DNA from: Candidatus Zixiibacteriota bacterium
GTDB taxonomy: Bacteria; Zixibacteria; MSB-5A5; GN15; FEB-12
Direction: 5' to 3'
Assembly: GCA_028289585.1 (NCBI GenBank)
Contig: JANQPI010000035.1
Span: forward strand, 30,717-94,716
Length of the DNA: 64,000 bases
The notes beneath the pieces are model-generated. The model saw nothing but the letters and a program-made list of their open reading frames with translations, was not told where the DNA came from and searched no databases. Every line of letters begins with the position of its first letter. Positions within the stretch are counted from its first letter, which is position 1. Positions 3,639-62,781 of this stretch are shown one piece after another. Both the position numbers and the translations under genes were made by a program.

Positions 3639-3688
3639 ATCACTCCTGACCCTCAACTGAATGTCCGTTTGGCCGATAAAGCTAGCGT

Positions 3689-29680: not shown

Positions 29681-30286
29681 CTAGAAGAACTTGATACCGA
29701 GGGAGATCGGAATGTAGTTCGTCGCCTCGCCGTCGGTCTGGATCGAGACCCAGCGCGCCTGAGCGAAGAACGAAAAGAGCGGTGTGGTTGCGAGTTCAAC
29801 ACCGGCACCAAACTCATAGTAGAATTCCGAGACATCTTCGGTCTGATTGAGCAAATCCACCGTGCTCGTAGCGAGCGGATTGTTCGTCTCAAAGTCGCCG
29901 ACACTGATCATGGCAATGCCGAGACCACCGAGCACGTACGGCTTGAGCGGAACGGCGGGGGCGCCAAACGCCTTCTTGGCATCAACGCCGAACAGCAGCA
30001 GCGAGTTGTCGCCACCGGTGATATCGAGACCAAAACCACCATCTTCGGCAGCAAAGCTGTTGAACTCGATCTTACCAACGAGCTCGACCGGGAGCATCTT
30101 GAGGCCCACGCCACCAAAGAAGTGGAAGCCGTTGCCATAGAGATCGGAGAAGCCTTCGGACTGCGGGAGAGAAATCAGACCACCGGCATAGAACGAAACC
30201 GGAGACTTCGGTACCTGCGCCTCGGCCGACGTAGTCGCCGCGGCGAGCAGCAGAGCGGTCAGGGAAAGAGCGATAAGTTTCTTCAC
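29681..30286 (-). CDS. Outer-membrane beta-barrel protein (OmpW/OmpA-like small porin family)
   Basis: Signal peptide MKKLIALSLTALLLAAATTSAEAQ. Alternating strands. C-terminal ...PISLGIKFF. Confidence 0.65.
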   Translation of the reverse strand: MKKLIALSLTALLLAAATTSAEAQVPKSPVSFYAGGLISLPQSEGFSDLYGNGFHFFGGVGLKMLPVELVGKIEFNSFAAEDGGFGLDITGGDNSLLLFGVDAKKAFGAPAVPLKPYVLGGLGIAMISVGDFETNNPLATSTVDLLNQTEDVSEFYYEFGAGVELATTPLFSFFAQARWVSIQTDGEATNYIPISLGIKFF

Positions 30287-38981: not shown

Positions 38982-39319
38982 GTGAACTACGGGTCGTTCT
39001 GATTACCGCCCGGACGAATGAAGCCGAGGAGCTGGCGGCAAAAATCGTTGAGGCGCGCATGGCCGCTTGTGTCAACATTGTCCCAAGCATGACCTCAATC
39101 TATTGGCTGAACAACAAAGTGCAGCGTGCTGAGGAAAGTCTGCTGGTTGCCAAATCGACCACTGATCGGGTCCAGGCGCTGATCGACTTTGTCGAGGACG
39201 AGCATTCGTACGCCCTACCGGAGATCATTGCGATGCCGGTTTCCGAGGGACTCTCCGGATACTTCGATTGGGTTCGTAAGGAAGCGAGCGGCGATCCGTC
39301 GTCACTCAGCATGGAGTAA
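38978..39319 (+). CDS. cutA: Divalent-cation tolerance protein CutA
   Basis: ATGA overlap with the upstream gene. LAAKIVEARMAACVNIVPSMTSIYWLNNKVQRAEESLLVAKS...YALPEIIAMPV. Confidence 0.85.
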   Translation: MSELRVVLITARTNEAEELAAKIVEARMAACVNIVPSMTSIYWLNNKVQRAEESLLVAKSTTDRVQALIDFVEDEHSYALPEIIAMPVSEGLSGYFDWVRKEASGDPSSLSME

Positions 39320-39329
39320 CGCTTCGGCG

Positions 39330-40148
39330 GTGTCAGACTTCACGCAGATTAACCAGCATCTTGCCAAGCTGCTGCGGCTGATCCGACTTCCTCTCAATCC
39401 CAATGATCCGCCCCGCCTGCTGCCGCAATCGCATTGGGTCATCAAGCAAAGCCGGGAGGTTATGGGTTCGCGACCGGAGGTCGCTACCGAACCACTGATC
39501 AAGCTGGGGAACATCGAGTACGGTCTGGGTGAGTTCGTGCGTGCCGTCGAATATTTTACACGGGCGGCCAATCAAGCGAACGAGGATGGTGACGATCGTC
39601 TGACGGATGTCGCCTTGCGCAATCTTGGTGTCGCTCAGCTGGCCAGTGAACAGTCGGATGCAGCGATTCGGACCTATGATCTGATCGCGGAACGCGCCGC
39701 GTTGATCAGCGAGGCGCCGACACAACGACTGGAAGCGATGATTAACAAAGCGACCGCGCTCCGCCGTGCCGATAGGCTCGACGACGCCCGTGCGACGCTT
39801 GAGGAAGTATGCCGCGTTGCGGCTGAGTCCGGTTTCCCTGATCTCGAAGCCAAGTGTTGGATGGACTTGTCGCTCTTTGATTACGCCAACGGTGAGACCA
39901 GGGCAGCTATTCAGAAGCTGAGGCGTGCCCTCGATCTCTATGCCATGAGTGGCAATATCGCCGATCAGTTGCGAGCCTACTACAACATCGCCCTCGTCTA
40001 CGCTGATAGCGGTGATCGACCAGCCGCTATCCGTCACTTAGAGCATGCGTTAACGCTACAGCGCGAACACAAGATCGAGTACGGGGACGAGTTGATCAGC
40101 AAAACCCTTGAGGAAATGCGCTCGCTCTCCGATTCCGGTGCGTCATGA
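39330..40148 (+). CDS. TPR-repeat protein
   Basis: TPR-like helices (LGEFVRAVEYFTRAANQ, AIRTYDLIAERAA, AIQKLRRALDLYAMSGN, AIRHLEHALTLQRE). The start is uncertain (GTG 39330 chosen; the track ORF from 39189 overlaps cutA). Confidence 0.6.
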   Translation: MSDFTQINQHLAKLLRLIRLPLNPNDPPRLLPQSHWVIKQSREVMGSRPEVATEPLIKLGNIEYGLGEFVRAVEYFTRAANQANEDGDDRLTDVALRNLGVAQLASEQSDAAIRTYDLIAERAALISEAPTQRLEAMINKATALRRADRLDDARATLEEVCRVAAESGFPDLEAKCWMDLSLFDYANGETRAAIQKLRRALDLYAMSGNIADQLRAYYNIALVYADSGDRPAAIRHLEHALTLQREHKIEYGDELISKTLEEMRSLSDSGAS

Positions 40149-41408: not shown

Positions 41409-41483
41409 GCGGGCGTAATTCAGTGGTAGAATGCAAGCTTCCCAAGCTTGACGTCGCCGGTTCGAGTCCGGTCGCCCGCTCCA
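41409..41483 (+). tRNA. tRNA-Gly (anticodon CCC), with encoded CCA
   Basis: Manual cloverleaf. Acceptor GCGGGCG/CGCCCGC. D-arm ATTC-AGTGGTA-GAAT. Anticodon arm CAAGC-TTCCCAA-GCTTG. T-arm GCCGG-TTCGAGT-CCGGT. Discriminator T plus CCA. Confidence 0.95.
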
Positions 41484-44150: not shown

Positions 44151-44203
44151 GGCAATCCGTACGGAATTGCCGGGTCGAGATTTCGCTCTATCGGCCGATA
44201 GAG
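44151..44203. promoter_or_regulatory. Two consecutive palindromes between der and the phosphatase gene
   Basis: GGCAATCCGTACGGAATTGCC (44151-44171; 10 paired positions with one bulged A) and the perfect 18-bp palindrome CTCTATCGGCCGATAGAG (44186-44203), 5 nt before ATG 44209. Confidence 0.55.
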
Positions 44204-44208
44204 CCGAT

Positions 44209-45501
44209 ATGACAACAACCCTCGACTACGCCACCCGTATCGACGAACTCGAACATCGACTCGCCGCGCGTCGGGCGGAGCTCCACGACCTTGCGACAAT
44301 GGGTGCGGTGATCACCTCGATCACCGAACTTGATGCGATTCTCTCGGTCGTCATGGATATGAGCCTCCGCCTTGTTGACGGTGAGGTCGGGTTTGTTATG
44401 GAAGCCGAGGGGGAGGACCTCGCTGCCCGCATCTCATGGGGAGTTGGTGAGGAGTTCGTTCGATCGCTCCACTACGCCGATGATCTCGATCTGCCGACGT
44501 GGGTGTACACCAATCGCGAAACGGTGCTGCTCTCCGATCTGGATCTCCGGACCGATGACGGCATGCAACTCAACAGTCTGATTGCCTCGCCCATTCAGGT
44601 TCAGGATAACTGCCTCGGGGTAATGATCATCATCAACAAGTCCGGAGGGACGTCCTTCACTGCCGATGATCAGGAGAAGCTCGAAGTTCTTCTCAATTTC
44701 CTCGCGGTTGCCATTCAGAACACACAGTTGATCAAGGCGAGGATGCGCCAGCAGCAGATGGAGCAGGAACTGCTCATTGCTCGCCAGGTGCAGACGACTA
44801 TCCTCCCGTCAGACCTCGCTCAAATGCCGGGTCTCCAGATTGGGACGGTCTATCAGCCGGCCCAGGAAGTGGGGGGAGATTTCTATGATGTCATTCGTTT
44901 AGGCGAGAAGAACTGTCTTGTCGTGCTTGGTGACGTCTCCAGTAAGGGAGTTCCGGCGGCGCTGGTTATGACAGCGACATCAGCTCTCATCCACTCAGTC
45001 GTCGACCTCGATCCGAACATCGATGTCGCGAACCTAATGATGAAAGTCAACGATCTGCTCTCCACGTCGATTATCAAAGACCGCGAAATGTTTGTGACGA
45101 TGTTCTTCGCGCGCTTCGATCTCGAACAAGGTGAGTTGAGTTATTGCAACGGCGGGCATGTGCCGGGCCTTTTCTGGGATGCCGCCGCTGGTGAGGTACG
45201 TGAGCTCGCGCTCGGAGGACCGATCGTTGGCGCATTTGTCGGTGCCCCATTTTCACGAGGGGCGCAACAAATCAAATCTGGTGACCGGTTGTTCCTGTTC
45301 ACCGACGGACTCACCGAAGCCGCGGACCGCTTTGACAATCTCTTCGGACGTGAGCGGGCCGAGGCGGTCTTCGTAGAGGAAATCAACCTGGCACCTCAGG
45401 CGGCCTGCGAACGTGTTCGCGAACGTATCGCCACCTTCGCCGAGGGCGCATCCGAAGAATCATACGACGACTTCACCGTCGTCCAGGCTGGGGTCGACTA
45501 G
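44209..45501 (+). CDS. GAF-domain PP2C-type (SpoIIE/RsbU-like) serine phosphatase
   Basis: A GAF-like N-terminal half. The PP2C core is ARQVQTTILP...EVGGDFYDVI...LGDVSSKGVPAALVMT...LFTDGLTEA. A TTG 44167 alternative start is possible. Confidence 0.85.
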   Translation: MTTTLDYATRIDELEHRLAARRAELHDLATMGAVITSITELDAILSVVMDMSLRLVDGEVGFVMEAEGEDLAARISWGVGEEFVRSLHYADDLDLPTWVYTNRETVLLSDLDLRTDDGMQLNSLIASPIQVQDNCLGVMIIINKSGGTSFTADDQEKLEVLLNFLAVAIQNTQLIKARMRQQQMEQELLIARQVQTTILPSDLAQMPGLQIGTVYQPAQEVGGDFYDVIRLGEKNCLVVLGDVSSKGVPAALVMTATSALIHSVVDLDPNIDVANLMMKVNDLLSTSIIKDREMFVTMFFARFDLEQGELSYCNGGHVPGLFWDAAAGEVRELALGGPIVGAFVGAPFSRGAQQIKSGDRLFLFTDGLTEAADRFDNLFGRERAEAVFVEEINLAPQAACERVRERIATFAEGASEESYDDFTVVQAGVD

Positions 45502-45502
45502 G

Positions 45503-45919
45503 ATGCCTCGTTACGCGTTCGATTATCCCTCCCGGTCAGACAGTGAAGCGCGGGCTATGGATGATCTCTTCGGACTACTCGAAGAGCACCAGATTCCGCA
45601 TGAACTACGGCAGCACTTTGCTCTCGCGGTATCGGAAGCGTTCACCAACGCTCTGGTCCACGGTAACCGACGTCAGGCTGAGAAGATAATCCATCTCGAG
45701 GTCGAGATTAATGACGACCTGTTGTCTGCCGATATAACCGACGAAGGCTCGGGCGGGCTCGACCGTATTGCTAATCGGTCGACGGCCGGCCTGCTGGCTG
45801 AAGGTGGGCGTGGAATTGACCTTATTCGTCACTACACCGATGCTTCATTTAGTGAGACACCAAATGGTGGCTTACGCGTGACGATCGTGATGAATCGAAA
45901 GAGCAACGTAGCGAACTAA
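45503..45919 (+). CDS. RsbW/SpoIIAB-like anti-sigma-factor-type serine kinase (HATPase_c_2)
   Basis: ATG 45503, 1 nt after the upstream stop. N-box EAFTNALVHGN, DEGSGG, GGRGIDLI. Confidence 0.8.
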   Translation: MPRYAFDYPSRSDSEARAMDDLFGLLEEHQIPHELRQHFALAVSEAFTNALVHGNRRQAEKIIHLEVEINDDLLSADITDEGSGGLDRIANRSTAGLLAEGGRGIDLIRHYTDASFSETPNGGLRVTIVMNRKSNVAN

Positions 45920-45943
45920 CGATAGCGTTTCATTCGGAGGACG

Positions 45944-46297
45944 ATGATGAACATCTCGATGCGGGAAGAGAACGGAATTGCGCTGCTGAGTTTGAGCGGA
46001 CGGCTCGATCTGGCCAGCGGCACCGCTCTGAAGGAGCAGGTCAAGAAACTCTTTGCCAACAACATGAACTCGATCCATCTGAATCTTGCGGAAGTTGAAT
46101 TTATCAACAGCTCCGGACTCGGCGCGATGGTCTCGATCATGAAAGAGACACGGATGCGCAAGGGGCGACTGACGCTGTCGAACTTGGCCACCTACGTTCA
46201 GGAGATTTTTGAGATCACGCAGCTTTCGCATATCTTTGAAATCTTCCCGACCGAAGAAGAAGCCGTCAGCTCGTTCTCGACAGTTCACGCCGGATAA
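45944..46297 (+). CDS. STAS-domain anti-sigma-factor antagonist (RsbV/SpoIIAA-like)
   Basis: 117 aa. LSGRLDLASGTALKEQV...VEFINSSGLGAMV contains the phosphorylatable-serine motif, ...IFEIFPTEEEAV. Confidence 0.85.
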   Translation: MMNISMREENGIALLSLSGRLDLASGTALKEQVKKLFANNMNSIHLNLAEVEFINSSGLGAMVSIMKETRMRKGRLTLSNLATYVQEIFEITQLSHIFEIFPTEEEAVSSFSTVHAG

Positions 46298-46336
46298 CGG
46301 CTCTGCCCCCCGACGATGGGGGGAGGGGGAGTTGCT

Positions 46337-48244
46337 ATGGCGCGTGTAACCGATCGTATCACGATCCTGTTGGCCCACTTGCAGGAGAATGATACCTCCG
46401 TTCGTATTCAGGCAATCGAGGAGCTGGGGGGCTTCGATGCCGATGAGGCCGTTGCTGGTCTTGTCGTTGCCCTGGAAGATACCGAACCGGCCGTTCGCGA
46501 AGTGGCCGCCGAGTTCTTGGCGGAGCGGCGCTCGACAACGGCAATTCGGCTATTGATCCATTTCCTCGGTCACGATCAAATCAGCACCCGCAACCTGGCA
46601 TCGGAAACGCTGGTGCGCATTGGTGCCCCTGCGGTCGATGACCTCATCACCCATCTCGATGCTGACGATCCTGATGTCCGCACGTTCATTGTCGATATTC
46701 TCGGACTGATCGGGGATCGCGCGGCAGTGGCAGCGCTTGTTCAGTGCCTCGATGATCCCAACCTGAACGTTGGCTGCGCTGCCGCTGAAGCGCTTGGTCG
46801 ACTTGCCGATTCGGCGGCCGTCGAGCCCTTGGTAGGTGCCATGGATCGGATGGACGATCTCCGGCTGCCCGCCATTGAAGCACTGGGCAATATCGGGGAT
46901 GCCTCAGCCGTCGCTCCACTCGTTGAGCGTTTAGCAACCGACGATCCAATCGTCCTGTATGGTGTCCTCGACGCCCTTGGGAAGCTCGGCGACGCCGACA
47001 CGGCCGAACGCTTGGCCCCATTTCTTGATGCCGATGATCGTTCCATCGCCGAAACCGCCCTGGCTGCCGTAATCGCAATCGATCGACGGCATGGTGGCCG
47101 CATTTCGGTCGATCTGTCCCTCGATCGCTTCACGGATTATCTCTTCGAGGGGATTCGCGATCACGACGCAGATATCACAGACTTTACGCTCAGTCGTCTC
47201 AAGCGTTGGTACGGTAATGATGTTCTTCGCGGGCTCCTCGGGGTTATTGACCACGTTTCCGACTCCGATTTGCATCGAATTACCGAGTTGCTGCGTGACG
47301 TTGGGTATCCTGCCGGTAAGGCGATTACCGATCGCTTGAAGACAGCAGCCAAGCCGCTCAAGCTCCGGCTACTCGACTTGCTGGTTCCGTTTGTCGACGA
47401 TGAGCTCGCTGCTGCGGTCACGCCACTAACGGCCGATGCTGATCCCGACGTGCGTCAGCGCATCGCCCACCTGTTGGGAATCTCCGGATGGACAGGGGCG
47501 ATCTACCCGCTCAAAGAGCTCGCCCTCGATCGACATGCCCATGTTCGTGCCGCTGCTTACAAGGCGATTGGCTGGCTCGGCTCCGACGCTCAGGTTGAGT
47601 GCATTATCCATGGACTCGATGACAAGTATCCCGAAGTGCGCGAAGCGGCATTGGGTGCGCTGATCATCATTGGCGGTCCTCATGTGATCGCGAAGTTAAC
47701 AGCAGATCTTTACCACGAAGACACTGAACGTCAGCGACTCAGTGTTATGGCCCTCGGTTGGATTGGGGAAGAGGAGGTTGTGTCTTCTCTGGTCAATGCC
47801 GTCGGTCATCCCGAGGCGACAGTGCGGCAGTCGGCGATCAACGCCCTGGCGCGAATCGGCGGTCTTCAGTCCGTTGACCCGATCCGCGCCACGCTGCACG
47901 ACAGCAATCCGGGAGTTCGCAAGGCGACTGCATCGGCCCTGGCGTTGTTAGCGGGTGAACGGGCGGTTCCCGACCTGATCGGTCTGCTGTCTGACGATGA
48001 CATTTGGGTGCGCTACCACACGATCTTGCAGCTGGGCACGATTCCGGGGGATGCGACCGTTGATGCCCTCTTGCCATTGATCAGTGATCCGCAGGACATC
48101 ATCAAACTTGCGGCTGCTAAAGCGCTGTCTGGCCTTAACTCTCAGCGCGCCTGTAGTGCCCTCGAATCGTTGCGGTCGGATGAAAATGAGGACCTTGTCG
48201 CGGTTGCGGAACAGGCCCTATCACAGATTGGAGATTCTGCGTGA
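46337..48244 (+). CDS. HEAT-repeat protein (PBS-lyase HEAT-like repeats throughout)
   Basis: ATG 46337 after GGGAGGGGGAG. More than 12 tandem units of the pattern VRxxAAxALGxxGDxxAVxPLxxxLxDxD (for example VRIQAIEELGGFDADEAVAGLVVALED). Confidence 0.8.
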   Translation: MARVTDRITILLAHLQENDTSVRIQAIEELGGFDADEAVAGLVVALEDTEPAVREVAAEFLAERRSTTAIRLLIHFLGHDQISTRNLASETLVRIGAPAVDDLITHLDADDPDVRTFIVDILGLIGDRAAVAALVQCLDDPNLNVGCAAAEALGRLADSAAVEPLVGAMDRMDDLRLPAIEALGNIGDASAVAPLVERLATDDPIVLYGVLDALGKLGDADTAERLAPFLDADDRSIAETALAAVIAIDRRHGGRISVDLSLDRFTDYLFEGIRDHDADITDFTLSRLKRWYGNDVLRGLLGVIDHVSDSDLHRITELLRDVGYPAGKAITDRLKTAAKPLKLRLLDLLVPFVDDELAAAVTPLTADADPDVRQRIAHLLGISGWTGAIYPLKELALDRHAHVRAAAYKAIGWLGSDAQVECIIHGLDDKYPEVREAALGALIIIGGPHVIAKLTADLYHEDTERQRLSVMALGWIGEEEVVSSLVNAVGHPEATVRQSAINALARIGGLQSVDPIRATLHDSNPGVRKATASALALLAGERAVPDLIGLLSDDDIWVRYHTILQLGTIPGDATVDALLPLISDPQDIIKLAAAKALSGLNSQRACSALESLRSDENEDLVAVAEQALSQIGDSA

Positions 48245-48636
48245 GCACCTCCCGAACTATTATGGTTGTCGACGACGAGCTCCTCATTCGTGATTTGTTG
48301 TATGACTTCTTCAGCAATCAGGGCTGGCGTATTCTCGTTGCCGAGAATGGCGAGGCGGCGCTCGATCAACTCGCCGATATCGATGTTGACGTTGTGCTTG
48401 CTGATATCAAGATGCCGGAGCTCGATGGCCTTGAGCTAACGGAACGGTTGGGCGAGGAAAAACCCCAGCTTCCCGTTGTCCTTATGACCGGATATCCGTC
48501 AGTCGATACGGCCGTATCGGCCCTGCGGTTGCGAGCAGCCGACTACATCGTGAAACCGTTTAATATCAATCAGCTCTATAAGTTGATTGATCGCACTGTT
48601 GAGCAGGCGCAGGCTGAGGTGCGCGATTCGGCCTGA
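48241..48636 (+). CDS. Single-domain response regulator (REC only)
   Basis: GTG start overlapping the upstream TGA. IMVVDDELLIRDLL...VVLADIKMPELDGLEL...IVKPFNI. Confidence 0.88.
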   Translation: MSTSRTIMVVDDELLIRDLLYDFFSNQGWRILVAENGEAALDQLADIDVDVVLADIKMPELDGLELTERLGEEKPQLPVVLMTGYPSVDTAVSALRLRAADYIVKPFNINQLYKLIDRTVEQAQAEVRDSA

Positions 48637-48655
48637 ATGGCCGGTGGAGAGATGC

Positions 48656-49708
48656 ATGCTCAACCACTTCGATACAGATATCGAAATCACGTCGGACGAC
48701 CTGCGACAGACTCGTGACTATATCCACGATCTGAGCGGTATCCACTTCACCCTTGGTCAGATTACGTCGCGGCGGCACCGACTTCAGCAACGGATCGCCG
48801 ACTTACAGATGACGGCTTTCCGGGACTACTTTTATCACCTGAAGTATGACACAACCGAACGCGAGGGAACTCAGCTCATGTCGATCCTGGCGGATAGTGC
48901 CACGCAGTTTTTTGCTGATTCGGCGGTATTTGAAGCTCTCCGACAGACGATTCTTCCGCGCATCGTGGCGGACAAAGATGCGGCCCGCCGATCACGAACG
49001 TTACGGATTTGGTCGGCCGGATGCGCGACCGGTGAAGAGGCCTATTCACTGGCAATGGTCGTTCACGATATTCTCCGAGACCGTCAGGATCTGACCATCG
49101 AGATCATTGCTACGGATATCTCAACAGATGCTCTGGCCGCAGCCAGCCTCGGTGAGTATTCGGCCTCCGCCGTCGATACGCTTCCCGAAGCGTACCGCCA
49201 AGCGTTCTTCGTCGCGAGTGACGGCGATTTCCGTATCTCGGAGGAGCTGCGCGCCATGGTCAAGTTCTCTCAGCATAATCTTAACGATCCGGACAAAGTC
49301 CGCCTGATTCGCCATATCGACGCTATTGTCTGTTGTAACGTGATGACTGACTGGTCGGATAACGCGCGTCGTCGTCTCGTCCGAGGCTTTCATCGCGTTC
49401 TTCTCCCCGGAGGCTACCTGCTCCTGTCGTCTTCGGAATCGTTGCGTGGGATCAGTCGAGCCTTTCATCCAGTTGCTGTTGGTAAGTCGCTCGTCTATCG
49501 ACGGACGCCCCTTGCGATACGCAGTGAGGTGATTACCTCGGTCGAACATGTCGTTGGCACTGCCGAAGCTCCAATCGACCAACCGGTGGCAACAACCGAA
49601 CCCGCGACGACAAGCGTCACGGGGCGTGCGATGAATCTCTTGAAAGGGGTCAATGGCGCTTCCTCGGAATCGGATTGGGAGCATGCTGATTGGGGGCTGA
49701 GGCGATGA
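48656..49708 (+). CDS. cheR: CheR-type protein-glutamate O-methyltransferase with a ~90-aa C-terminal extension
   Basis: ATG 48656. SAM-binding LRIWSAGCATGEEAYSLAMVV, IIATDISTDAL, IVCCNVM, LLPGGYLLL. Confidence 0.85.
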   Translation: MLNHFDTDIEITSDDLRQTRDYIHDLSGIHFTLGQITSRRHRLQQRIADLQMTAFRDYFYHLKYDTTEREGTQLMSILADSATQFFADSAVFEALRQTILPRIVADKDAARRSRTLRIWSAGCATGEEAYSLAMVVHDILRDRQDLTIEIIATDISTDALAAASLGEYSASAVDTLPEAYRQAFFVASDGDFRISEELRAMVKFSQHNLNDPDKVRLIRHIDAIVCCNVMTDWSDNARRRLVRGFHRVLLPGGYLLLSSSESLRGISRAFHPVAVGKSLVYRRTPLAIRSEVITSVEHVVGTAEAPIDQPVATTEPATTSVTGRAMNLLKGVNGASSESDWEHADWGLRR

Positions 49709-50106
49709 AATCGAACGTTCCAATGTCGGATACTGGTAAGCCTACCGTATTGGTTGTCGATGATTCGCCAACCGTTATCAAGTTTCTGTCGTTTTCCTTG
49801 CGCAATGACGGCTTCGACGTTGTCTCGGCAGTCGACGGTGTCGATGCGCTCGAACGCCTCACCCGCCACCCGCAGTCGATCGATCTCGTCATCACGGATT
49901 TGAATATGCCGAACCTTGACGGATACGGTTTGATCGAAGCTATTCGTCAGAACGCTGATTTCCGCAACCTGCCGATCATTATCCTCTCGTTCGAAGCCAG
50001 CGATGAGGACGAGCAACGAGGGATTGAAGCGGGGGCAACGAGCTACTTTGTCAAGCCGTTCAAATCGTCACTCCTGCGGACCGAAGTCACGCGACTGCTG
50101 GGATAA
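49705..50106 (+). CDS. CheY-like single-domain response regulator
   Basis: ATGA overlap with cheR. VLVVDDSPTVIKFL...LVITDLNMPNLDGYGLI...YFVKPF. Confidence 0.88.
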   Translation: MKSNVPMSDTGKPTVLVVDDSPTVIKFLSFSLRNDGFDVVSAVDGVDALERLTRHPQSIDLVITDLNMPNLDGYGLIEAIRQNADFRNLPIIILSFEASDEDEQRGIEAGATSYFVKPFKSSLLRTEVTRLLG

Positions 50107-50107
50107 G

Positions 50108-50497
50108 ATGGAGTCCGGTTCCGTGTACGACCTCCGCATACTGGCTGTTGATGACTCGCCCACCATGCGACGGATTATCATCAACACGTTGAAACGTGCG
50201 GGTTTCCCGAACGTCATTGAGGCAGTCGATGGCAAAGACGCGCTGGCTAAGATTCAGGTGGAACCTGTCGATTTTGTCATCGCGGATTGGAACATGCCAG
50301 AAATGGATGGTCTGGAGCTGGTGGCTGCGCTGCGTGAGAGTGTGGATTATCACAATCTGCCTGTTCTCATGGTAACGACACGATCCGTCAAAGAAGATAT
50401 CGTTGAGGCGATGCGTGCCGGGGTCAACAGCTACATCGTGAAGCCGTTCACGCCCGAAATTCTTCGCGAGAAAATCCTCCAGATTACCTGCGTGTAG
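50108..50497 (+). CDS. cheY: CheY chemotaxis-type response regulator
   Basis: ATG 50108, 1 nt after the upstream stop. ILAVDDSPTMRRIIINTLKRAGF...FVIADWNMPEMDGLELV...YIVKPFT. Confidence 0.88.
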   Translation: MESGSVYDLRILAVDDSPTMRRIIINTLKRAGFPNVIEAVDGKDALAKIQVEPVDFVIADWNMPEMDGLELVAALRESVDYHNLPVLMVTTRSVKEDIVEAMRAGVNSYIVKPFTPEILREKILQITCV

Positions 50498-50509
50498 TCC
50501 GAGTCGCGC

Positions 50510-51439
50510 ATGATCGATCGGGCGACACCATCAGAATCAGAAAACGAACTCAGCGAGATCGTTGATTCGTTCGTCATCGAATCACGAGAGCTCCTGGCCG
50601 ACTGCTATCGGTATCTCAACCGATGGTCGACCGACGGAGATGCGGGCGATTCGATGGCGGATCTTGCCCGGGCATTACACACAATCAAAGGCACCGCCAG
50701 CTTTCTGAATCTCGAGGCGATTGTCGCGCGGGCGCATGCTCTTGAGGAGACGCTTCGCGCGTTCGGCTGCGACCAATCCACGGTGACAGTCGATGCCGTT
50801 GGCGAACTGAGTGACCACCTGGATCAGCTGGCGATCGATGTCTCACTGGTGGGGGAGATACGCCCAGAAAACGTACCACATCGTCCGTTCACCGAAGTAG
50901 CTGTCGCTGCCTACTGTCAGGCGCTCGCGGGGTACGTCGAGCGAATTGCCGCTGAGTGCAGCATTAACGCGGCGCTCTCAGTCAGCGTTCGCCCCGATGA
51001 TCTTCCTTATCAACTCGTTCAGCCGCTGTCATCAGCGATTCTCCATTTGCTGCGTAATGCGTGCGCCCACGGCATAGAGTCGGCCGGTCTACGGGTCGCC
51101 GCTGGAAAGCCGGCAACCGGTGTGATTTCTCTGAGCATCGAACTTGACGACCAGCAGCTGACGGTGCGTGTCGCCGATGATGGTCGGGGGCTTGATGCTA
51201 AGGCAATCTCAGCGGCCGCGCGAGAGTTTGGGGAGGCGGCAACCGGCCCCATGACTGCCGAGGAGCAGATCATCCTTCCAGGGTTCTCCACCGCGCTCTC
51301 AGCTGGCCCCCTCGCCGGTCGAGGGTATGGCCTCGATGTCGTTCGCCGGAGCGCTGAGGCACTGGGTGGCAGGCTCGTTGTCGAGGGTCGTCAGGGTCAC
51401 GGTTTCGCAGCCGTGGTTACCATTCCGCAAATCCGGTAA
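50510..51439 (+). CDS. Minimal CheA-like kinase: HPt (P1) plus CheA-type HATPase (P4) only
   Basis: HPt motif LARALHTIKGTASFL. CheA-type N-box HLLRNACAHGIES, G1 ADDGRGLD, F-box IILPGFSTA, G2 AGRGYGLDVV. At 309 aa there is no room for the P2, P3 or P5 (CheW-like) domains. Confidence 0.75.
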   Translation: MIDRATPSESENELSEIVDSFVIESRELLADCYRYLNRWSTDGDAGDSMADLARALHTIKGTASFLNLEAIVARAHALEETLRAFGCDQSTVTVDAVGELSDHLDQLAIDVSLVGEIRPENVPHRPFTEVAVAAYCQALAGYVERIAAECSINAALSVSVRPDDLPYQLVQPLSSAILHLLRNACAHGIESAGLRVAAGKPATGVISLSIELDDQQLTVRVADDGRGLDAKAISAAAREFGEAATGPMTAEEQIILPGFSTALSAGPLAGRGYGLDVVRRSAEALGGRLVVEGRQGHGFAAVVTIPQIR

Positions 51440-51502
51440 GTCTAACTTTTAGTTGAAGATAGCTCCTTCCACCGGCATTGTCGCAAACGGTGGTAAGGGA
51501 AT

Positions 51503-52870
51503 ATGTCTGATCGAGATCAACTCGTCGCAGCGCTGGCGGCATCGAACGGTGACAATTCTGTCGGCTCGTTTACGGAGTCGTATGCCGTCTTTCAGCGGTC
51601 GATTAACCGTCTCCAGCGGCAGTATATCCAACTCCGCGAGGAGTTTTCGGCTCAGAATAGCCAGCTCGTAGCGCTAAATCGCGAGCTGGTATCGCTGACC
51701 GGCCAGAACGTCGCCACCACCCAGTTTCTTGACTCAATTCTTCGGGCACTTGGTGTCGCCGTTGTTGCTGTCGATCGCCGGGGCATAATCACGCACTGTA
51801 ACCCCGCGGCCTGTCACCTCTTAGGAGTTGAAGAGTCAGCTCTTCTTGGCCAGCCGTACGAGGTCGCCGTGCCGTCGCTTGCCGACGATGGTGCGACTGC
51901 GGCCGCCGCCATACGATCGGGCGAAACGGTCGCCAATGTACCGCGTCGACTCATCCTTCCTGGACAACCCGAGCTTCAGCTCTCGGTGTCCACCGCCCTT
52001 CTGCACGACGATGAGGGGGCGATTAGTGGAGCGGTTGAAATATGTCATGATCTGACGCCTCTGCGGCGGATGGAGCAGGAGGTCGCACGTCTGAATACCC
52101 TGGTTGCCCTGGGTGAGATGGCCGCGACAATCGCGCACGAGGTTCGCAACCCCCTCGCTGGAATCGCCGGATTCGCCTCCCTCCTGAGGAATGATCTTGA
52201 AGAAGAAGATCCGCGGCGACGGACCGCGGACAAGATCATTAAGGGGGTCGAAGCGCTCGACCATACCGTTACGACACTGCTCAACTACACCCGCCAGGAA
52301 GAACTGCAGATGCAGTCGGTCTCATTATTGCCCTGGCTGACACAAATTATCGCACGCTGGCGGACTGAATCTCCTGATCGAGGTCGACCGACGTTACGTG
52401 CTCCGAAAGATCCTGCCTTAGTTGACTTCGTCCTTTCTGTCGATCCCGTGCTCATGCACCAAGTACTGTTCAACCTGTTTGCCAATGCGTATGAGGCCGC
52501 CGGCGACGGGGACGTAACGATTACGCTATCGACTCGGCTCCTCGCACGATCGCATGCCGTCGTCAGTTATGGTGACCAGATACCGTTGACCCTGAACGAA
52601 ACGATCGTTGAGCTGTTGGTCAGTGATGATGGCCCCGGTGTCCCGAGCGAAATGCTCCCCAAGCTGTTTCGTCCCTTCTTTACGACCAAGAAACAGGGGA
52701 CCGGGCTCGGTTTAGCCGCTGCTGCCAAGATTGTACGTGCTCACGGTGGAGCGATCGATGCTCGCCCGGCCGAGCCAACGGGTCTAACCATTGTTATTGC
52801 ATTACCTGTAGCCCTGCCGTCTGCGACGGCACCGACACGGATGTCGGAATCCGGGGAGAGGAGAGCATGA
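51503..52870 (+). CDS. PAS-domain sensor histidine kinase (NtrB/FleS-like)
   Basis: PAS (VAVDRRGIITHCNPAACHLLGV), H-box MAATIAHEVRNPLAGI, HATPase FFTTKKQGTGLGLAAAAKIVRAHGG. Confidence 0.9.
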   Translation: MSDRDQLVAALAASNGDNSVGSFTESYAVFQRSINRLQRQYIQLREEFSAQNSQLVALNRELVSLTGQNVATTQFLDSILRALGVAVVAVDRRGIITHCNPAACHLLGVEESALLGQPYEVAVPSLADDGATAAAAIRSGETVANVPRRLILPGQPELQLSVSTALLHDDEGAISGAVEICHDLTPLRRMEQEVARLNTLVALGEMAATIAHEVRNPLAGIAGFASLLRNDLEEEDPRRRTADKIIKGVEALDHTVTTLLNYTRQEELQMQSVSLLPWLTQIIARWRTESPDRGRPTLRAPKDPALVDFVLSVDPVLMHQVLFNLFANAYEAAGDGDVTITLSTRLLARSHAVVSYGDQIPLTLNETIVELLVSDDGPGVPSEMLPKLFRPFFTTKKQGTGLGLAAAAKIVRAHGGAIDARPAEPTGLTIVIALPVALPSATAPTRMSESGERRA

Positions 52871-54279
52871 AGCACGCCGTCCTGATTGTAGACGACGATC
52901 CGTTTGTAAATGAATTCGTAACTGAGGCCTTAACGCGACTCGGCTATGAAACCGAATCAGTCCTGAGCGGTGAAGATGCTCTCGTCGCGATGGATGACCG
53001 AGAATTCGATATCGTTCTGACCGACCTCAAGATGGGGGGGATGGACGGTCTGGAGCTGTTGCGATCGATTCGACGGCGTGATGCTCAGGCGATAGTTATG
53101 ATTATGACCGCTTACGGATCAGTGGAAACTGCCGTACGTGCTGTAAAAGACGGTGCCTACGACTTCCTCATTAAACCGGTGACTCCCGAAACCCTTGAAA
53201 TCAAGCTCGGTCAGGCGGTAGAAACATTGCTGCTCCGCCAGGAAAATCAACAGCTGCGCCAGGATTTGACACATGACTACATGAGCATGATCGGTAAGAG
53301 CGGAGTCATGCGCGAAGTCTATGAAAAGATTCAGGCTGCGGCCACCGCCCGCTCAACCGTGTTGCTGACCGGTGGCTCCGGCACTGGTAAGGAGATGGTA
53401 GCACGTGCGCTGCATTTCGCCTCACCCAGGAGTAACGGTCCGTTCGTGCGCGTCAACTGTGCTGCTCTGCCCGATGAACTGGTCGAATCGATGCTCTTTG
53501 GCCACGAGAAGGGAGCGTTTACGCACGCCTATAAGGCAACGCGTGGGCGCTTTGAGGTTGCCGACGGCGGTACGATCCTGCTCGACGAAATCTCCGAGAT
53601 GAATATCAATCTGCAGGGGAAGTTACTTCGCGTTCTGCAGGAGTCTGAGTTTGAGCGGGTCGGTTCGGAGGAGACGATCAAAGTCGATGTCCGGGTCATT
53701 GCGACGTCGAATCGCAATCTGAAAGAATACATCGAGCGCCGTCAATTCCGCGACGACCTGTACTACCGACTGGCGGTTGTGCCGATCCACCTTCCGTCGC
53801 TGGAACAGCGCAAAGAAGATATCCCATTGCTCGTCGACCACTTCGTTCGGAAGTACAACGCCGAGAATGGTCGTTCGGTCAAGGGCCTGACGCGGGGGGC
53901 ATTGAACCTCTTTGCCGGCTATCATTGGCCGGGCAACGTCCGGGAGCTGGAGAACGTCATTGAGGGAGCGATCGTCATGGCTCGCGATGAGTGGCTAACC
54001 GAGGACGACTTCCCAATGGAAATGTCTCTCGGACGTGTCGCTGACCACGCGCCAAGCTTTGAAGTTCCGCTGACCATCAAAGAAGGGAATCGGTTCCTCG
54101 TTCTCAAGACGCTCGAGTTCACCAACAATAATCGTACCGAGGCGGCCCGACGACTGGGCATCACCACTCGAACCCTGCGCAATTGGCTTAACGAGTGGGG
54201 AATGGGAGCCGGGGGCGGGGATTCCGATGATGAGGAGGAGGAATCGGCCGGTACCGACCGAGCCGGTTCTGCCGCCTGA
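52867..54279 (+). CDS. Sigma-54-dependent response regulator (NtrC/FleR/FlrC type)
   Basis: ATGA overlap with the kinase gene. REC (VLIVDDDPFV...IVLTDLKMGGMDGLELL), GGSGTGKE, GHEKGAFTHA, Fis-type HTH (TEAARRLGITTRTLRNWL), acidic tail. Confidence 0.92.
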   Translation: MKHAVLIVDDDPFVNEFVTEALTRLGYETESVLSGEDALVAMDDREFDIVLTDLKMGGMDGLELLRSIRRRDAQAIVMIMTAYGSVETAVRAVKDGAYDFLIKPVTPETLEIKLGQAVETLLLRQENQQLRQDLTHDYMSMIGKSGVMREVYEKIQAAATARSTVLLTGGSGTGKEMVARALHFASPRSNGPFVRVNCAALPDELVESMLFGHEKGAFTHAYKATRGRFEVADGGTILLDEISEMNINLQGKLLRVLQESEFERVGSEETIKVDVRVIATSNRNLKEYIERRQFRDDLYYRLAVVPIHLPSLEQRKEDIPLLVDHFVRKYNAENGRSVKGLTRGALNLFAGYHWPGNVRELENVIEGAIVMARDEWLTEDDFPMEMSLGRVADHAPSFEVPLTIKEGNRFLVLKTLEFTNNNRTEAARRLGITTRTLRNWLNEWGMGAGGGDSDDEEEESAGTDRAGSAA

Positions 54280-54303
54280 TCTGCTCAGAGACTGACCAGA
54301 CCT

Positions 54304-54311
54304 GCCGATAA
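54304..54311 (+). promoter_or_regulatory. Sigma-28 (FliA)-type -10 box GCCGATAA upstream of motA; no convincing -35
   Basis: An 8/8 match to the GCCGATAA -10 consensus, 60 nt before the motA ATG. The region expected to hold TAAA reads TCAG. Confidence 0.25.
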
Positions 54312-54371
54312 CTACTCGTAGTAGCCGGCCGATACGACATCGGCGGGCCGGGAAAGCTACGGACGGTTCGG

Positions 54372-55139
54372 ATGGATCTGGCAACCCTTATCGGTCTCAT
54401 CGTTGCCTTCGGCGCGGTCGGCGGCGGCTTCCTGATGGAAGGCGGCTCGCTTGATGCGCTCGTCCTGTTGCCTCCGATTATTATCGTCGTGGGTGGCACT
54501 CTCGGCGCGACGATGGTGACAACATCCTTCGGCACCGTGGTTCGTGCGCCGCTCTATCTCCGCCTCGCTTTCTTCAGCAAAGCCCCTAATCGGGCAGCAA
54601 CGATTGATCAGATCACCCGCCTCGCCGAGAAAGCGCGACGGGAGGGTATTCTGGGTCTGGAGACCGATCTTAAGAAGATTCGGCACCCGTTCTTTCACAA
54701 AGCGATCCAGCTGCTGATCGATGGCACCGAGGTGACGGTCCTTCGTGAAATTCTCGAAACCGAAATTGCCTATATCGAAGAACGTCACCGTAAAGGAATC
54801 GTCTTTTTCCAAAAAGCGGGTGGCTTTGCGCCTACGTTGGGAATCCTTGGCACGGTCATGGCGCTCGTGCACACGTTGGGCAACATGGAAGACGCCGGCA
54901 CGATGGCTCGATCGATTGCGACGGCGTTCATTGCTACCTTGTGGGGCGTAGGCACCGCAAACCTCTTCTTCCTCCCCATCGCCGACAAGCTTGTCATGCG
55001 GCACGAAGAAGAAGCCGCTCATCTGGAGCTGATTGTCGAAGGGATCGTTTCGATTCAATCGGGTGACAACCCGCGCAATGTCCGGACGCGACTTCTGTCG
55101 TTTGTTTCACCCGAACAGCGTTCGATTCCGCGGAGATAG
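54372..55139 (+). CDS. motA: Flagellar stator protein MotA (MotA/TolQ/ExbB channel family)
   Basis: MDLATLIGLIVAFGAVGGGFLMEGG. C-terminal channel helices ATLWGVGTANLFFLPIADKL. Confidence 0.92.
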   Translation: MDLATLIGLIVAFGAVGGGFLMEGGSLDALVLLPPIIIVVGGTLGATMVTTSFGTVVRAPLYLRLAFFSKAPNRAATIDQITRLAEKARREGILGLETDLKKIRHPFFHKAIQLLIDGTEVTVLREILETEIAYIEERHRKGIVFFQKAGGFAPTLGILGTVMALVHTLGNMEDAGTMARSIATAFIATLWGVGTANLFFLPIADKLVMRHEEEAAHLELIVEGIVSIQSGDNPRNVRTRLLSFVSPEQRSIPRR

Positions 55140-55142
55140 TCG

Positions 55143-55910
55143 ATGCGTCGCCGTCGCCGCCCGACCGGGGGTAACGATAATTTCGAGCGCTGGTTGCTTA
55201 CCTATGCTGACTTGATCACGTTGCTGCTCGCATTTTTCATCGTGATGTATTCAATGTCGTCAGTCGACGACAAGAAGTTCGACCAGGTCACGAGTGCGCT
55301 CAATGGCGTTCTCAAAGGCGGAAAAAGCCTGATTGAACGCGAGGGAACAATTCCCTCGGAACGACGGGCCGGTCGCGGGATTATTCATCTCGGCAATCTT
55401 GACATGATTCGCGAACGGATCGATCAGCGCTTCTCACGTTTGCAGCGCCGTGACGAAATCGAAACCGAGATCACGGAACGGGGACTTGTCATTCACGTGC
55501 TCGAATCAGCACTTTTTGCTGAGGGAGAGGCTGAGTTGCAGCCACGCGCGCAGGAAGTGCTCGATCTGATCGCCACCGAGCTCGTTGGCATTCCCAATCA
55601 CGTCCGCGTTGAGGGGCATACCGATGATCGCCCGATCCAAACGCTGGCGTATCCGACCAACTGGGAGCTGTCAGCGTCGCGCGCAACGCGAGTTGTCCGC
55701 TACTACATCGAAAACTTCGAGATCTATCCCGGTCGAATATCTGCCCTCGGATACGGCCGCTACCGCCCGATCGTCCCGAACAATTCGATCGAGAACCGAG
55801 CCCGCAATCGGCGCGTCGATGTCGTTATCCTGACAATGGATTTGACGCTCAAAGAACCCTCGAGCCAGCTCTTCTCTCCCGATTTCGCGGCGGAATCGAA
55901 TTCCCCCTAG
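55143..55910 (+). CDS. motB: Flagellar stator protein MotB (OmpA-like peptidoglycan-binding C-terminus)
   Basis: WLLTYADLITLLLAFFIVMYSMSS contains the plug/TM with the conserved Asp. OmpA-like VEGHTDDRPI...NWELSASRA...NRRVDVVI. Confidence 0.92.
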   Translation: MRRRRRPTGGNDNFERWLLTYADLITLLLAFFIVMYSMSSVDDKKFDQVTSALNGVLKGGKSLIEREGTIPSERRAGRGIIHLGNLDMIRERIDQRFSRLQRRDEIETEITERGLVIHVLESALFAEGEAELQPRAQEVLDLIATELVGIPNHVRVEGHTDDRPIQTLAYPTNWELSASRATRVVRYYIENFEIYPGRISALGYGRYRPIVPNNSIENRARNRRVDVVILTMDLTLKEPSSQLFSPDFAAESNSP

Positions 55911-56069: not shown

Positions 56070-56480
56070 ATGGATAACGGACTTTCGACATTTCTCTTCA
56101 ACCGGATGCGCATACCGCAGCTCGATCGTTATCTCGATTTGGCCGCGTACCGTCATAAGCTTCTGGCCGGCAACGTCGCGAACGTTGCCACGCCCGGTTA
56201 TCAGGCGCAGGATCTCGACTTTGCGGGTGAATACGAGAAACTGAACAAGTCCGATCGTCCGTTTTCGCTTTCGGTGACGCATCCGAATCACCTTCCCGTT
56301 GGCCAGGACCGCTTTTCACCCAAAGTCCACCGCACCAAAGTCGAGTCATCGGCAATGAACTCGGTCGATATCGATCGCGAAGTAGCGTCGATGGCCCAGA
56401 ACGAACTTCGGTTCACGGTCGCCGCACGATTGCTGCAGCGGAAATTCGACGGCATGCGGTCCGCGATTCAGAGCAAGTAG
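56070..56480 (+). CDS. flgB: Flagellar basal-body rod protein FlgB
   Basis: LDLAAYRHKLLAGNVANVATPGYQAQDL and C-terminal MAQNELRFTVAARLL. Confidence 0.92.
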   Translation: MDNGLSTFLFNRMRIPQLDRYLDLAAYRHKLLAGNVANVATPGYQAQDLDFAGEYEKLNKSDRPFSLSVTHPNHLPVGQDRFSPKVHRTKVESSAMNSVDIDREVASMAQNELRFTVAARLLQRKFDGMRSAIQSK

Positions 56481-62335: not shown

Positions 62336-62781
62336 AACGGTTCCGCTATCGTCTTGAACCACTGTTGACGCGAGCGCGCCAGCAGGAAGAGCAACGCCAG
62401 CGTGACCTGGCAGCGGCTGAAACGAAGGTGCGAAACCAGCAGCAGAGGCTGATCGAACTGGCCGACCGCAAACAGGGTACAGTCGAGCGTATGCGCCAAC
62501 AGATGTTGAGCTCCTTGTCGGTCAGCGCCCTTTCTCGATCCTATCGGCACCTGGTGATTACGAAACGGGATCAAGTAACCGGTGCGGAAGTGTTACGGTC
62601 GCTTCAGCAAACCGCTGCCGGCGCACGAGATGACCTCACTATCGCAATGCGGGAGCGGAAGAAATACGAGAAACTGAAAGAGCGTCAACGAGACCGGCAT
62701 CGAACCGCCGCCGAGGAACGCGAGCGGAAAGAACTCGATGAGCTTTCGATTCAGCGGTACCGGTTTACCCGCGCTACTTGA
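62332..62781 (+). CDS. fliJ: Flagellar export chaperone-like protein FliJ
   Basis: ATGA overlap with fliI. 149-aa coiled coil MKRFRYRLEPLLTRARQQEEQRQRDLAAAE.... Confidence 0.8.
   Translation: MKRFRYRLEPLLTRARQQEEQRQRDLAAAETKVRNQQQRLIELADRKQGTVERMRQQMLSSLSVSALSRSYRHLVITKRDQVTGAEVLRSLQQTAAGARDDLTIAMRERKKYEKLKERQRDRHRTAAEERERKELDELSIQRYRFTRAT

Follow-up and report, generated by a model that had tools for sequence, protein, structure and literature searches.

A Zixibacterial gene order joining a partner switch and a HEAT-repeat protein to chemotaxis genes, with a chemotaxis core probably reduced in place in one genome

Several described systems contain parts of the locus considered here, a block of thirteen co-directional genes at positions 44209-55910 of a 64,000-nucleotide stretch (hereafter the window) from a Candidatus Zixiibacteriota bacterium (assembly GCA_028289585.1, contig JANQPI010000035.1). 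Genes for STAS proteins and serine phosphatases lie within chemotaxis (che) clusters that have no sigma factor gene in the stage-1/2 F7 systems (PMC7184735), and in Shewanella oneidensis the Che1 cluster has a CrsR/CrsA partner switch that acts on RpoS, a sigma factor encoded elsewhere (PMC9855816). Pseudomonas aeruginosa has an HptB-HsbR(PA3346)-HsbA(PA3347)-FlgM pathway, in which HsbA acts on FlgM (PMC8256260, PMC5085249), and STAS-only proteins have been noted in motility and chemotaxis operons more widely (review, PMC8256260). In the Che7 system of Myxococcus xanthus, the HEAT-repeat protein Cpc7 binds CheY7, as Darnell et al. 2014 are cited in PMC11514114 and PMC9040617. Set beside these systems and beside its counterparts in related genomes, the block is a form of a Zixibacterial gene order, likely divided into three transcription units, and in this organism its chemotaxis core has probably undergone reduction in place.

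Gene order in the window and in other Zixibacteria

The block represents, in this organism, a conserved Zixibacterial gene order that about 60 genomes of the phylum have in common. The comparison set comprised five genomic contexts obtained from HEAT protein matches and 61 GTDB species-representative loci, compared by tblastn; the 61 scanned loci are all from Zixibacteria/GN15 metagenome-assembled genomes (MAGs), some of them automatically labelled 'Ignavibacteriales'. Denominators differ with locus length, and 45 loci span the interval from the HEAT gene to the PAS kinase gene. In all loci long enough, the order runs DUF512-Der-GAF-PP2C-RsbW-STAS-HEAT-REC1-CheR-REC2-REC3 and continues, after REC3, CheZ-full CheA-CheB-PAS kinase-sigma-54 activator-MotA-MotB. 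PP2C, RsbW and STAS stand upstream of HEAT in 52/52 loci; CheR, CheZ, CheB and a full CheA with Hpt, H-kinase_dim, HATPase_c and CheW domains (P1-P5) are present in 43 of the 45 loci spanning HEAT to PAS kinase. The window has only a 930-bp mini-cheA at the site where relatives have CheZ-CheA-CheB.

Conservation of the regulatory genes as a unit beside motAB, which a sequence-only reading of the window had proposed as a check, was thus found in every sufficiently long locus. The same reading had called the Che-like genes receptor-less. As a design of the system this does not survive the comparison, since the syntenic genomes have CheZ, P1-P5 CheA and CheB at the mini-CheA site; the receptor-less state of the window is a lineage-specific reduction. 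The best HEAT match among the species-representative loci is 53%, and in two relatives, L001 and L002, the shared order extends 5' of the block, from the gene for serine hydroxymethyltransferase (SHMT) to Der.

The thirteen genes of the window's copy were assigned by a Pfam profile search of long open reading frames (ORFs) selected as probable genes, the great majority of them on the + strand, where almost all long ORFs of the window lie:

44209-45501, + strand: GAF-PP2C serine phosphatase of the RsbU/SpoIIE type (Pfam GAF 1e-10, SpoIIE 3e-39)
45503-45919, + strand: RsbW/SpoIIAB-like anti-sigma-type serine kinase (HATPase_c_2 2.6e-16)
45944-46297, + strand: STAS anti-sigma-factor antagonist (STAS 1.4e-20)
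46337-48244, + strand: HEAT-repeat solenoid protein, 635 aa (nine HEAT_2 matches, 5e-87; HEAT_PBS 3.8e-30)
48241-48636, + strand: REC1, a stand-alone receiver of the NtrC/AtoC type (Response_reg 4e-29)
48656-49708, + strand: divergent CheR-like methyltransferase (CheR 5.8e-48; CheR_N sub-threshold)
49705-50106, + strand: REC2, a CheY-like single-domain receiver (Response_reg 2e-26)
50108-50497, + strand: REC3, a CheY (Pfam receiver match and residue signature)
50510-51439, + strand: mini-CheA, P1 and P4, 309 aa (Hpt 4.7e-13, HATPase_c 1.5e-13)
51503-52870, + strand: soluble PAS-HisKA-HATPase_c kinase (Pfam)
52867-54279, + strand: REC-Sigma54_activat-HTH_8 activator (Sigma54_activat 5.6e-68)
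54372-55139, + strand: motA (MotA_ExbB 3.9e-29, MotA_N)
55143-55910, + strand: motB (MotB_plug 2.4e-21, OmpA 1.2e-18)

All thirteen domain assignments of the sequence-only reading are borne out by these matches, and the junctions are as tight as it had claimed. Gaps of 1 nt separate PP2C from RsbW and REC2 from REC3, and GTGA or ATGA overlaps join HEAT to REC1, CheR to REC2 and the PAS kinase to the activator; larger gaps precede the PAS kinase (63 nt), motA (92 nt) and the putative flgB (159 nt). Of the ten block proteins scanned against NCBIfam, only STAS reaches a model cutoff, that of a broad anti-sigma-antagonist superfamily.

The absences that had been reported for the 64 kb likewise hold. 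Pfam found no MCPsignal, CheW, CheB_methylest, CheD, CheZ or sigma-70-family domain in the scanned long ORFs of the window, and tblastn with relatives' CheZ, CheA and CheB as queries found no remnant there of CheZ, the CheB esterase domain or CheA P5. The syntenic genomes have no gene for a methyl-accepting chemotaxis protein (MCP) or CheW within the cluster either, and the called genes within 10 kb in the relatives' contexts fetched include no sigma-70-family gene, so that the partner-switch trio is without a sigma gene in the window and, at that distance, in its relatives. The relatives carry part of a standard set beside these genes: CheZ, CheA and CheB are there; MCP, CheW and a sigma gene are not. 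This comes near to what the sequence-only reading had itself named as refuting its view.

Two further loci have reduced their che region independently. In L052 (CAZYRH010000087.1, 4345-10105), CheR, CheZ, CheA and CheB are gone, and only REC1 and a CheY remain before the PAS kinase; in L035 (CBDUZQ010000088.1, 3099-8826), the same four are gone, and REC1 and REC1b are kept. REC1b is an extra receiver gene (155 aa) that lies between REC1 and CheR in about 20 loci (for example L037 5153-5617 and L040 12191-12655). L035 shares 89% DNA identity with L037 up to REC1/REC1b, and L037 carries the full che set. What the window, L035 and L052 all still have is the partner switch, HEAT, REC1 and the kinase/activator pair.

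These comparisons bear on the possibility that the eleven regulatory genes form one machine, receptor-less by design, which controls flagellar expression or the motor and in which the mini-CheA feeds the CheY-like proteins, the HEAT partner and the partner switch. The tight and overlapping junctions fit such a machine, as does the co-linear and apparently co-transcribed arrangement of partner switch, HEAT, REC1 and che genes in so many genomes. However, the full CheA with its P5 domain, CheB and CheZ in the syntenic loci imply that the ancestral system was receptor-coupled, and the survival of partner switch, HEAT and REC1 in L035 and L052 after loss of the che genes implies that the modules are separable. 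A single receptor-less machine is unlikely on this evidence, and the features of the che proteins and promoter-like motifs described below also bear on it.

The chemotaxis core of the window

The reference for the mini-CheA is the canonical CheA (P1-P5), along with split CheAs such as those of Rhodobacter sphaeroides. The window protein resembles canonical CheA in its P1 domain (Hpt, with His57 in an HTIKG motif) and in a P4 domain with all its boxes, and differs in joining the two by a linker of ~15 residues, with no P2, no P3 dimerisation domain and no P5/CheW-like receptor-coupling domain; it aligns only to residues 10-116 (P1) and 295-451 (P4) of relatives' CheA. Thirty-one of the 38 positions conserved at >=90% are retained, and His57, Glu79, the N-box (H179, N183, H187, G188, E190), G1 (DDGRG), the F-box (GFST) and G2 (GRGYG) are all kept. 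In an AlphaFold model (predicted local distance difference test score, pLDDT, 82.8), residues 9-116 form a four-helix P1 bundle, which a short linker joins to a P4 fold; the best Foldseek matches of the model in the PDB are CheA P4 structures, with target TM-scores (template modelling scores) of ~0.8. By its residues and its model, the mini-CheA looks like an active but uncoupled kinase.

No close relative of this protein was found. An exhaustive phmmer search found no mini-CheA relative above 38% identity, its matches being dominated by giant multi-Hpt ChpA-like proteins, and the next-best match among 5.8 billion clusters is 33% identical. Other CheW-less CheA-like proteins (P0014 and P0109) are longer and only ~30% identical to it. 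CheW-less CheA-like kinases occur in two small receptor-less clusters, L073 (GCA_037975565.1, 5304-8473) and L072 (6001-8293); one of these is composed of a ChpT-like HPTransfase, Hpt-HATPase, REC and CheR (in an alphaproteobacterial MAG), and the other of Hpt-HATPase, REC and a CheX-like protein. The existence elsewhere of such kinases with REC and CheR or CheX neighbours is a point in favour of the single receptor-less machine, as is the retention of the kinase motifs despite about 68% sequence divergence, which suggests continued use.

The CheR of the window has diverged as well. Across the whole database it matches Zixibacteria/GN15 CheRs best, yet at no more than 36-42% identity, and it is changed at 24 of the 72 positions conserved in >=90% of the 119 nearest homologues. 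Seven 100%-conserved residues are among the changes (E82A, R87A, Q91V, R227C, Y232D, F233W and G258S). In this alignment, and in one to P. aeruginosa CheR1 (PDB 5xly), the protein reads ADSATQFFA for the universal TTNETxFFR motif and CCNVMTDW for CRNVMIYF; the Arg in FFR and the Tyr in IYF would correspond to Arg98 and Tyr235 of the methyl-transfer site of Salmonella CheR. The binding motifs for S-adenosylmethionine (SAM), WSAGCxTGEE and DIS, are intact. Judged by these residues, the window CheR looks catalytically compromised or repurposed, and the loss of invariant motif residues speaks against its working in a single machine with the rest of the block.

The divergence of these two proteins stands out when the identity among five relatives is set beside the identity of the window protein to those relatives:

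STAS: 71% among relatives, 70% window to relatives
RsbW: 46% among relatives, 50% window to relatives
REC1: 70% among relatives, 64% window to relatives
HEAT: 58% among relatives, 50% window to relatives
REC2: 73% among relatives, 62% window to relatives
REC3: 84% among relatives, 73% window to relatives
Sigma-54 activator: 72% among relatives, 59% window to relatives
MotA: 75% among relatives, 69% window to relatives
CheR: 68% among relatives, 38% window to relatives
CheA: 66% among relatives, 32% window to relatives

Block genes other than cheR and mini-cheA are near-normally conserved. The most parsimonious account of the sequences is that cheZ, cheB and CheA P2, P3 and P5 were lost in place and that, at the same time or afterwards, the remainder underwent accelerated evolution.

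Horizontal import of cheR and mini-cheA was considered and rejected. The divergent genes do not appear to be imports because the best matches of CheR and of the mini-CheA P1 domain are Zixibacteria proteins, GC content and GC content at third codon positions (GC3) equal those of the neighbouring genes, and REC2 and REC3, which lie between the two, are ordinary orthologues. The fuller form of this explanation, in which the genes are xenologous or the junction is the product of chimeric assembly of a metagenome, can point to the P4 domain, which scores 108-118 bits against some non-Zixibacterial CheAs and 91-99 bits against those of Zixibacteria, and to the lack of a close relative of either protein among the 5.8 billion clusters. 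It must also contend with the intact gene order and junctions, and with a conserved motif upstream of the flrB-like PAS kinase gene that follows directly after the mini-CheA stop codon; taken together, these observations make import or misassembly highly improbable.

Plain decay is another explanation for the same changes. CheR would then be dead and the mini-CheA a truncated leftover, and what is still in use would be confined to the partner switch, HEAT and REC1, together with the kinase/activator pair and motAB. The deletion of cheZ and cheB, the loss of P2, P3 and P5, the changes at 100%-conserved CheR residues, a divergence of CheR and CheA roughly twice that of their neighbours and the complete loss of che genes in L035 and L052 are all in keeping with decay. 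Yet the cheR and mini-cheA ORFs are intact, in register and tightly joined to their neighbours, CheR keeps its SAM-binding motif, and REC3 and REC2 remain 73% and 62% identical to their orthologues. The retention of His57 and every ATP-binding box in the mini-CheA is, moreover, hard to explain without selection for kinase activity. Decay on its own is improbable in this light, and reduction in place, with a core that may still function, is the preferred reading.

Promoter-like motifs and the surroundings of the block

Three promoter-like motifs or motif groups were recognised in the block:

44175..44209, + strand: sigma-28-type motif before PP2C, TCGA-N15-GCCGATAG, with a second GCCGATA overlapping the ATG
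51444..51481, + strand: sigma-70-like motif before the PAS kinase, AACTTTTAGTTGAAG-N17-CATTGT, with a T-rich upstream element
54285..54334, + strand: sigma-28-type motifs before motA, TCAG-N15-GCCGATAA at 54285-54311 and a second GCCGATA at 54328-54334

The classical sigma-28 consensus is TAAA-N15-GCCGATAA, and the motifs before PP2C and motA match it. All three have counterparts in other Zixibacteria. TxAA-N15-G[CT]CGATA precedes the PP2C start in 47/53 Zixibacteria loci, in most of them by 17-23 nt. In 44/45 loci, both che-less loci included, the 200 nt before the PAS kinase gene contain AAGTTTT(T/A)GTTGAA, and where loci were inspected by eye a TAnnnT-like hexamer comes 16-17 nt further downstream. 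Before motA, CTGCCGATA is found in all 33 of 33 loci, mostly 68-96 nt upstream, along with a T-rich/A -35-like element. The window holds 22 copies of GCCGATA, as against 8.2 +/- 2.9 expected. The results of a consensus scan for promoters and terminators did not rise above chance, and no terminator on the + strand lay between genes within the block.

Because these conserved promoter-like motifs lie in three larger gaps, three transcription units appear more likely than one. The sequence-only reading had seen one block feeding into motAB and flgB. With sigma-28-type, sigma-70-like and sigma-28-type motifs in succession, a single unit reaching into motAB is probably not correct; the position of motAB itself stands, and flgB (56070-56480) is identified by position only, its Flg_bb_rod match having E=0.099. 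The motifs likewise set the kinase/activator pair and motAB apart from the rest, which is a further point against a single machine. In enteric bacteria, che and mot genes belong to the late (sigma-28) class, and by its consensus match the operon of partner switch, HEAT and che genes would belong to a late flagellar class here too.

Several other occurrences of these motifs were observed. The main motif before PP2C (44175-44201) lies, in its downstream part, within a 20-bp perfect palindrome, GCTCTATCGGCCGATAGAGC (44185-44204), which consists of two opposed GCCGATA; a second, near-perfect palindrome (44151-44171) comes directly after the Der stop, and neither is conserved in relatives. A second REC-sigma-54-activator gene (3689-5137, +), which has a canonical GAFTGA loop, is preceded by TCAA-N15-GCCGATAA at 3653-3679 (+), the first base of the GCCGATA standing 17 nt before the gene; this activator may also belong to the late flagellar regulon. 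A textbook sigma-28-type motif, CTAAAG...GCCGATAG (30332-30326, -), stands 46 nt upstream of a gene for an outer-membrane beta-barrel protein (29681-30286, -). GCCGATA is also present at 12122, 50 nt before the ORF of a second, unrelated HEAT_2 protein (734 aa, 12172-14376), 30 kb 5' of the block.

The surroundings of the block are flagellar on one side and housekeeping on the other. On the 3' side, the putative flgB is followed by flgC, fliE, fliF, fliG, fliH, fliI and fliJ, and directly after fliJ lies a convergent gene (62774-63919, -) for a protein with an FlgD_ig domain and a C-terminal sorting domain of the type IX secretion system; if such sorting domains mark the FCB group, the protein agrees with a Zixibacterial origin of the window. 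On the 5' side are genes for SHMT, a thiamine-binding protein, CutA1, a tetratricopeptide-repeat (TPR) protein, NrdR, TatC, a DUF512 radical-SAM protein and Der. The TPR gene (39189-40148), between cutA and nrdR, does not occur in the otherwise syntenic L001 and L002; a tRNA gene at 41409-41480, between tatC and the DUF512 gene, is the sole Rfam match.

Described counterparts and the proposed working of the block

The partner switch looks intact by sequence. The GAF-PP2C protein is 52-59% identical to its orthologues, its SpoIIE match covers positions 2-190 of the 192 in the profile, and the Asp-containing motifs GGDFYD, GDVSSKG, TDG and DDFT, which bind metal in PP2C phosphatases, are present. 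The RsbW-like kinase carries the N-box EAFTNALVHG, DEGSG (G1) and GGRG (G2), and its best NCBIfam matches, all below cutoff, are anti-sigma F/B factors (SpoIIAB, RsbW). The STAS protein scores 82.8 bits against ant_ant_sig (TIGR00377; cutoff 53), is 68-71% identical to its orthologues and has an NSSGLG motif with a phosphorylatable Ser. With the F7 and Shewanella Che1 systems, the locus shares a STAS protein and a serine phosphatase inside a che cluster that contains no sigma gene. It differs from the latter in that CrsR is a single REC-PP2C-kinase protein, whereas the window has a GAF-PP2C phosphatase and a separate RsbW-like kinase, and from the former in that F7 clusters have Aer2/McpA receptors, CheW and CheD, whereas the block has none of these and has a HEAT protein in addition. 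Unlike both, it sits in the flagellar locus of a phylum of the FCB (Fibrobacteres-Chlorobi-Bacteroidetes) group.

The likeness to HsbR and HsbA lies in a switch of PP2C/kinase and STAS tied to flagellar sigma-28 control, with His-Asp phosphotransfer input. HsbR is, however, a fusion protein with an N-terminal REC domain, whereas the phosphatase of the window has a GAF domain; and unlike the HsbA-FlgM connection, a link to FlgM or FliA is suggested here solely by the sigma-28-type promoter ahead of the operon. The sequence-only reading had drawn this analogy and that to Che7, and both were judged apt.

The HEAT protein appears to be a Zixibacterial family with more distant relatives in other che clusters. 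Its full-length orthologues (633-637 aa, 43-55% identity) fall into about 39 clusters, every named one from Zixibacteria, and the next tier of matches falls sharply to 31% identity. An AlphaFold2 model (pLDDT 91.7) has 39 helices, and Foldseek comparison with the PDB returned generic solenoid scaffolds only. Homologues of ~30% identity and 660-680 aa occur in the che clusters of three non-Zixibacterial loci, in at least two of which the HEAT gene is immediately 5' of cheR. These clusters have the order MCP-CheW-HEAT(~665 aa)-CheR-CheB-GAF-REC (L069 9487-15311, L070 8544-15252, and L071 9519-15375, labelled Nitrospirae); they are probably Che7-like and may represent a wider family that includes the Zixibacterial HEAT gene. 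No relationship was detected between the GAF domain of the PP2C protein and the stand-alone GAF proteins in these clusters.

The three receivers of the block are of different kinds. REC1 overlaps the HEAT gene or is separated from it by <=2 nt in all five relatives inspected, and has the DD, D57, T87 and K109 equivalents; among its paralogues it is closest to the receiver domain of the sigma-54 activator nearby, not to CheY. Against an E. coli CheY reference sequence, REC2 is 37% identical (59-64% to its orthologues), and REC3 is 54% identical (67-76% to its orthologues), with D12/D13/D57/T87/Y106/K109 equivalents all present; the NCBIfam CheY score of REC3, 136.7 bits, is below the cutoff of 189. 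By gene context, the locus resembles Che7 and Cpc7 in having a large PBS-type HEAT protein in a che cluster with a single-domain receiver directly beside it. It differs in that the block has no MCP, CheW or desaturase, REC1 is of the NtrC rather than the CheY type, and Che7 controls development in Myxococcus, not flagella.

The PAS kinase (45-49% identical to orthologues; H-box HEVRNP at residue 212, no hydrophobic segment) and its activator always adjoin motAB in the loci compared, where MotA is 67-72% identical to its orthologues. In architecture and position only, the pair resembles FlrB/FlrC of Vibrio, FleS/FleR of Pseudomonas and FlgS/FlgR of Campylobacter: a soluble PAS kinase and a REC-AAA+-HTH activator are encoded by an overlapping gene pair upstream of motAB and flgBC-fliEFGHIJ. 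It differs in its sigma-54-contact loop, which reads GAFTHA in the window (GAFTDA in L001, L002, L003 and L006) where GAFTGA is near-universal, and in FlgR and FlbD scores far below the NCBIfam cutoffs.

From these features, a working model of the locus can be proposed. The first unit, from a sigma-28-type promoter, would comprise the partner switch, the translationally coupled HEAT/REC1 pair and the chemotaxis core; the second, from a sigma-70-like promoter, the soluble PAS kinase and the sigma-54 activator; and the third, from a sigma-28-type promoter, motAB. Because all ATP-binding boxes are kept, the mini-CheA is predicted to autophosphorylate His57, and it may pass the phosphate to REC3 (CheY) and REC2. 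It would do so without receptor-array coupling and without CheZ, and any motor bias that it set would be independent of chemoeffector gradients, unless another che system exists elsewhere in the genome. The CheR probably folds and keeps its SAM-binding motif, and may be inactive on receptors or repurposed. The HEAT protein and REC1 may form a complex, given the overlapping or nearly overlapping junction in relatives and the precedent of Cpc7 and CheY7. The PAS kinase is a likelier source of input to REC1 than CheA is, as REC1 is an NtrC-type receiver and is retained in che-less loci.

A cue sensed by the GAF domain, and possibly also REC1/HEAT, would drive the partner switch, the target of which would be encoded elsewhere. 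Operons for anti-sigma factors and antagonists are often transcribed by the sigma factor they control, as in the sigB operon. This practice, the sigma-28-type promoter on the operon and the HsbA-FlgM precedent make sigma-28 or FlgM the leading candidate target and the most economical guess.

A bolder, combined proposal is also conceivable: first, that a sigma-28 operon wires the partner switch and HEAT-REC1 to the chemotaxis and FlrBC phosphorelays, with the RsbW-like protein, or STAS via FlgM, setting sigma-28 activity, which would amount to an undescribed feedback of signalling state on the expression of late flagellar genes; and second, that in this lineage the che core, instead of simply decaying, has been converted to a receptor-independent one, in which a monomeric P1-P4 kinase and a CheR-derived pseudo-enzyme charge CheY-like receivers that talk to HEAT and the partner switch. 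Both parts together have a small, though not negligible, chance of being correct.

Some observations weigh against the reading preferred here, that of a Zixibacterial gene order in three units with a core reduced in place. The promoter assignments are made from consensus and conservation, with no fliA gene in the window or fetched flanks, and the motif before PP2C, 15-23 nt from the start codon, would give a transcript with almost no leader. The FlrBC-like role, for its part, is assigned by position: a scan of 40-64 kb for TGGCAC-N5-TTGCW, the sigma-54 promoter consensus, found nothing matching at >=9/11 positions, a weak GGCAC-N5-CTGTA lies before the putative flgB, and the activator loop, GAFTHA or GAFTDA, is non-canonical. 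All CheAs lie at much the same distance from the mini-CheA P4 domain, so that replacement by a foreign gene keeps a small probability, and fast evolution with lost CheR motif residues also fits plain decay. Additionally, the analysis covers 64 kb of the genome, and a second, complete che system, MCPs, CheW, FliA and FlgM may or may not be encoded elsewhere in it.

The sequence-only reading had not recognised the architecture as that of a described system. For the combination this holds, and the literature searched gave nothing specific on the combined architecture, on Zixibacteria motility, on CheR catalytic residues or on Geobacter HEAT/che clusters; for the parts it does not, as precedents exist in che clusters (PMC7184735, PMC9855816 and loci L069-L071). 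The locus is not a new class of system, each ingredient having a described precedent. Rather, the Zixibacterial arrangement apparently combines known elements in an undescribed way, and the window adds a reduced derivative of it.

The phylum-wide operon structure offers a testable signalling layout for the uncultured Zixibacteria: behind sigma-28-type promoters, chemotaxis genes are combined with a partner switch and a HEAT/receiver pair. The window, L035 and L052 form a natural series of partial or whole removal of the che core, which argues that the two modules are functionally separable. Further, a P1-P4 CheA with neither dimerisation nor receptor-coupling domains could help to ask what CheA does alone.

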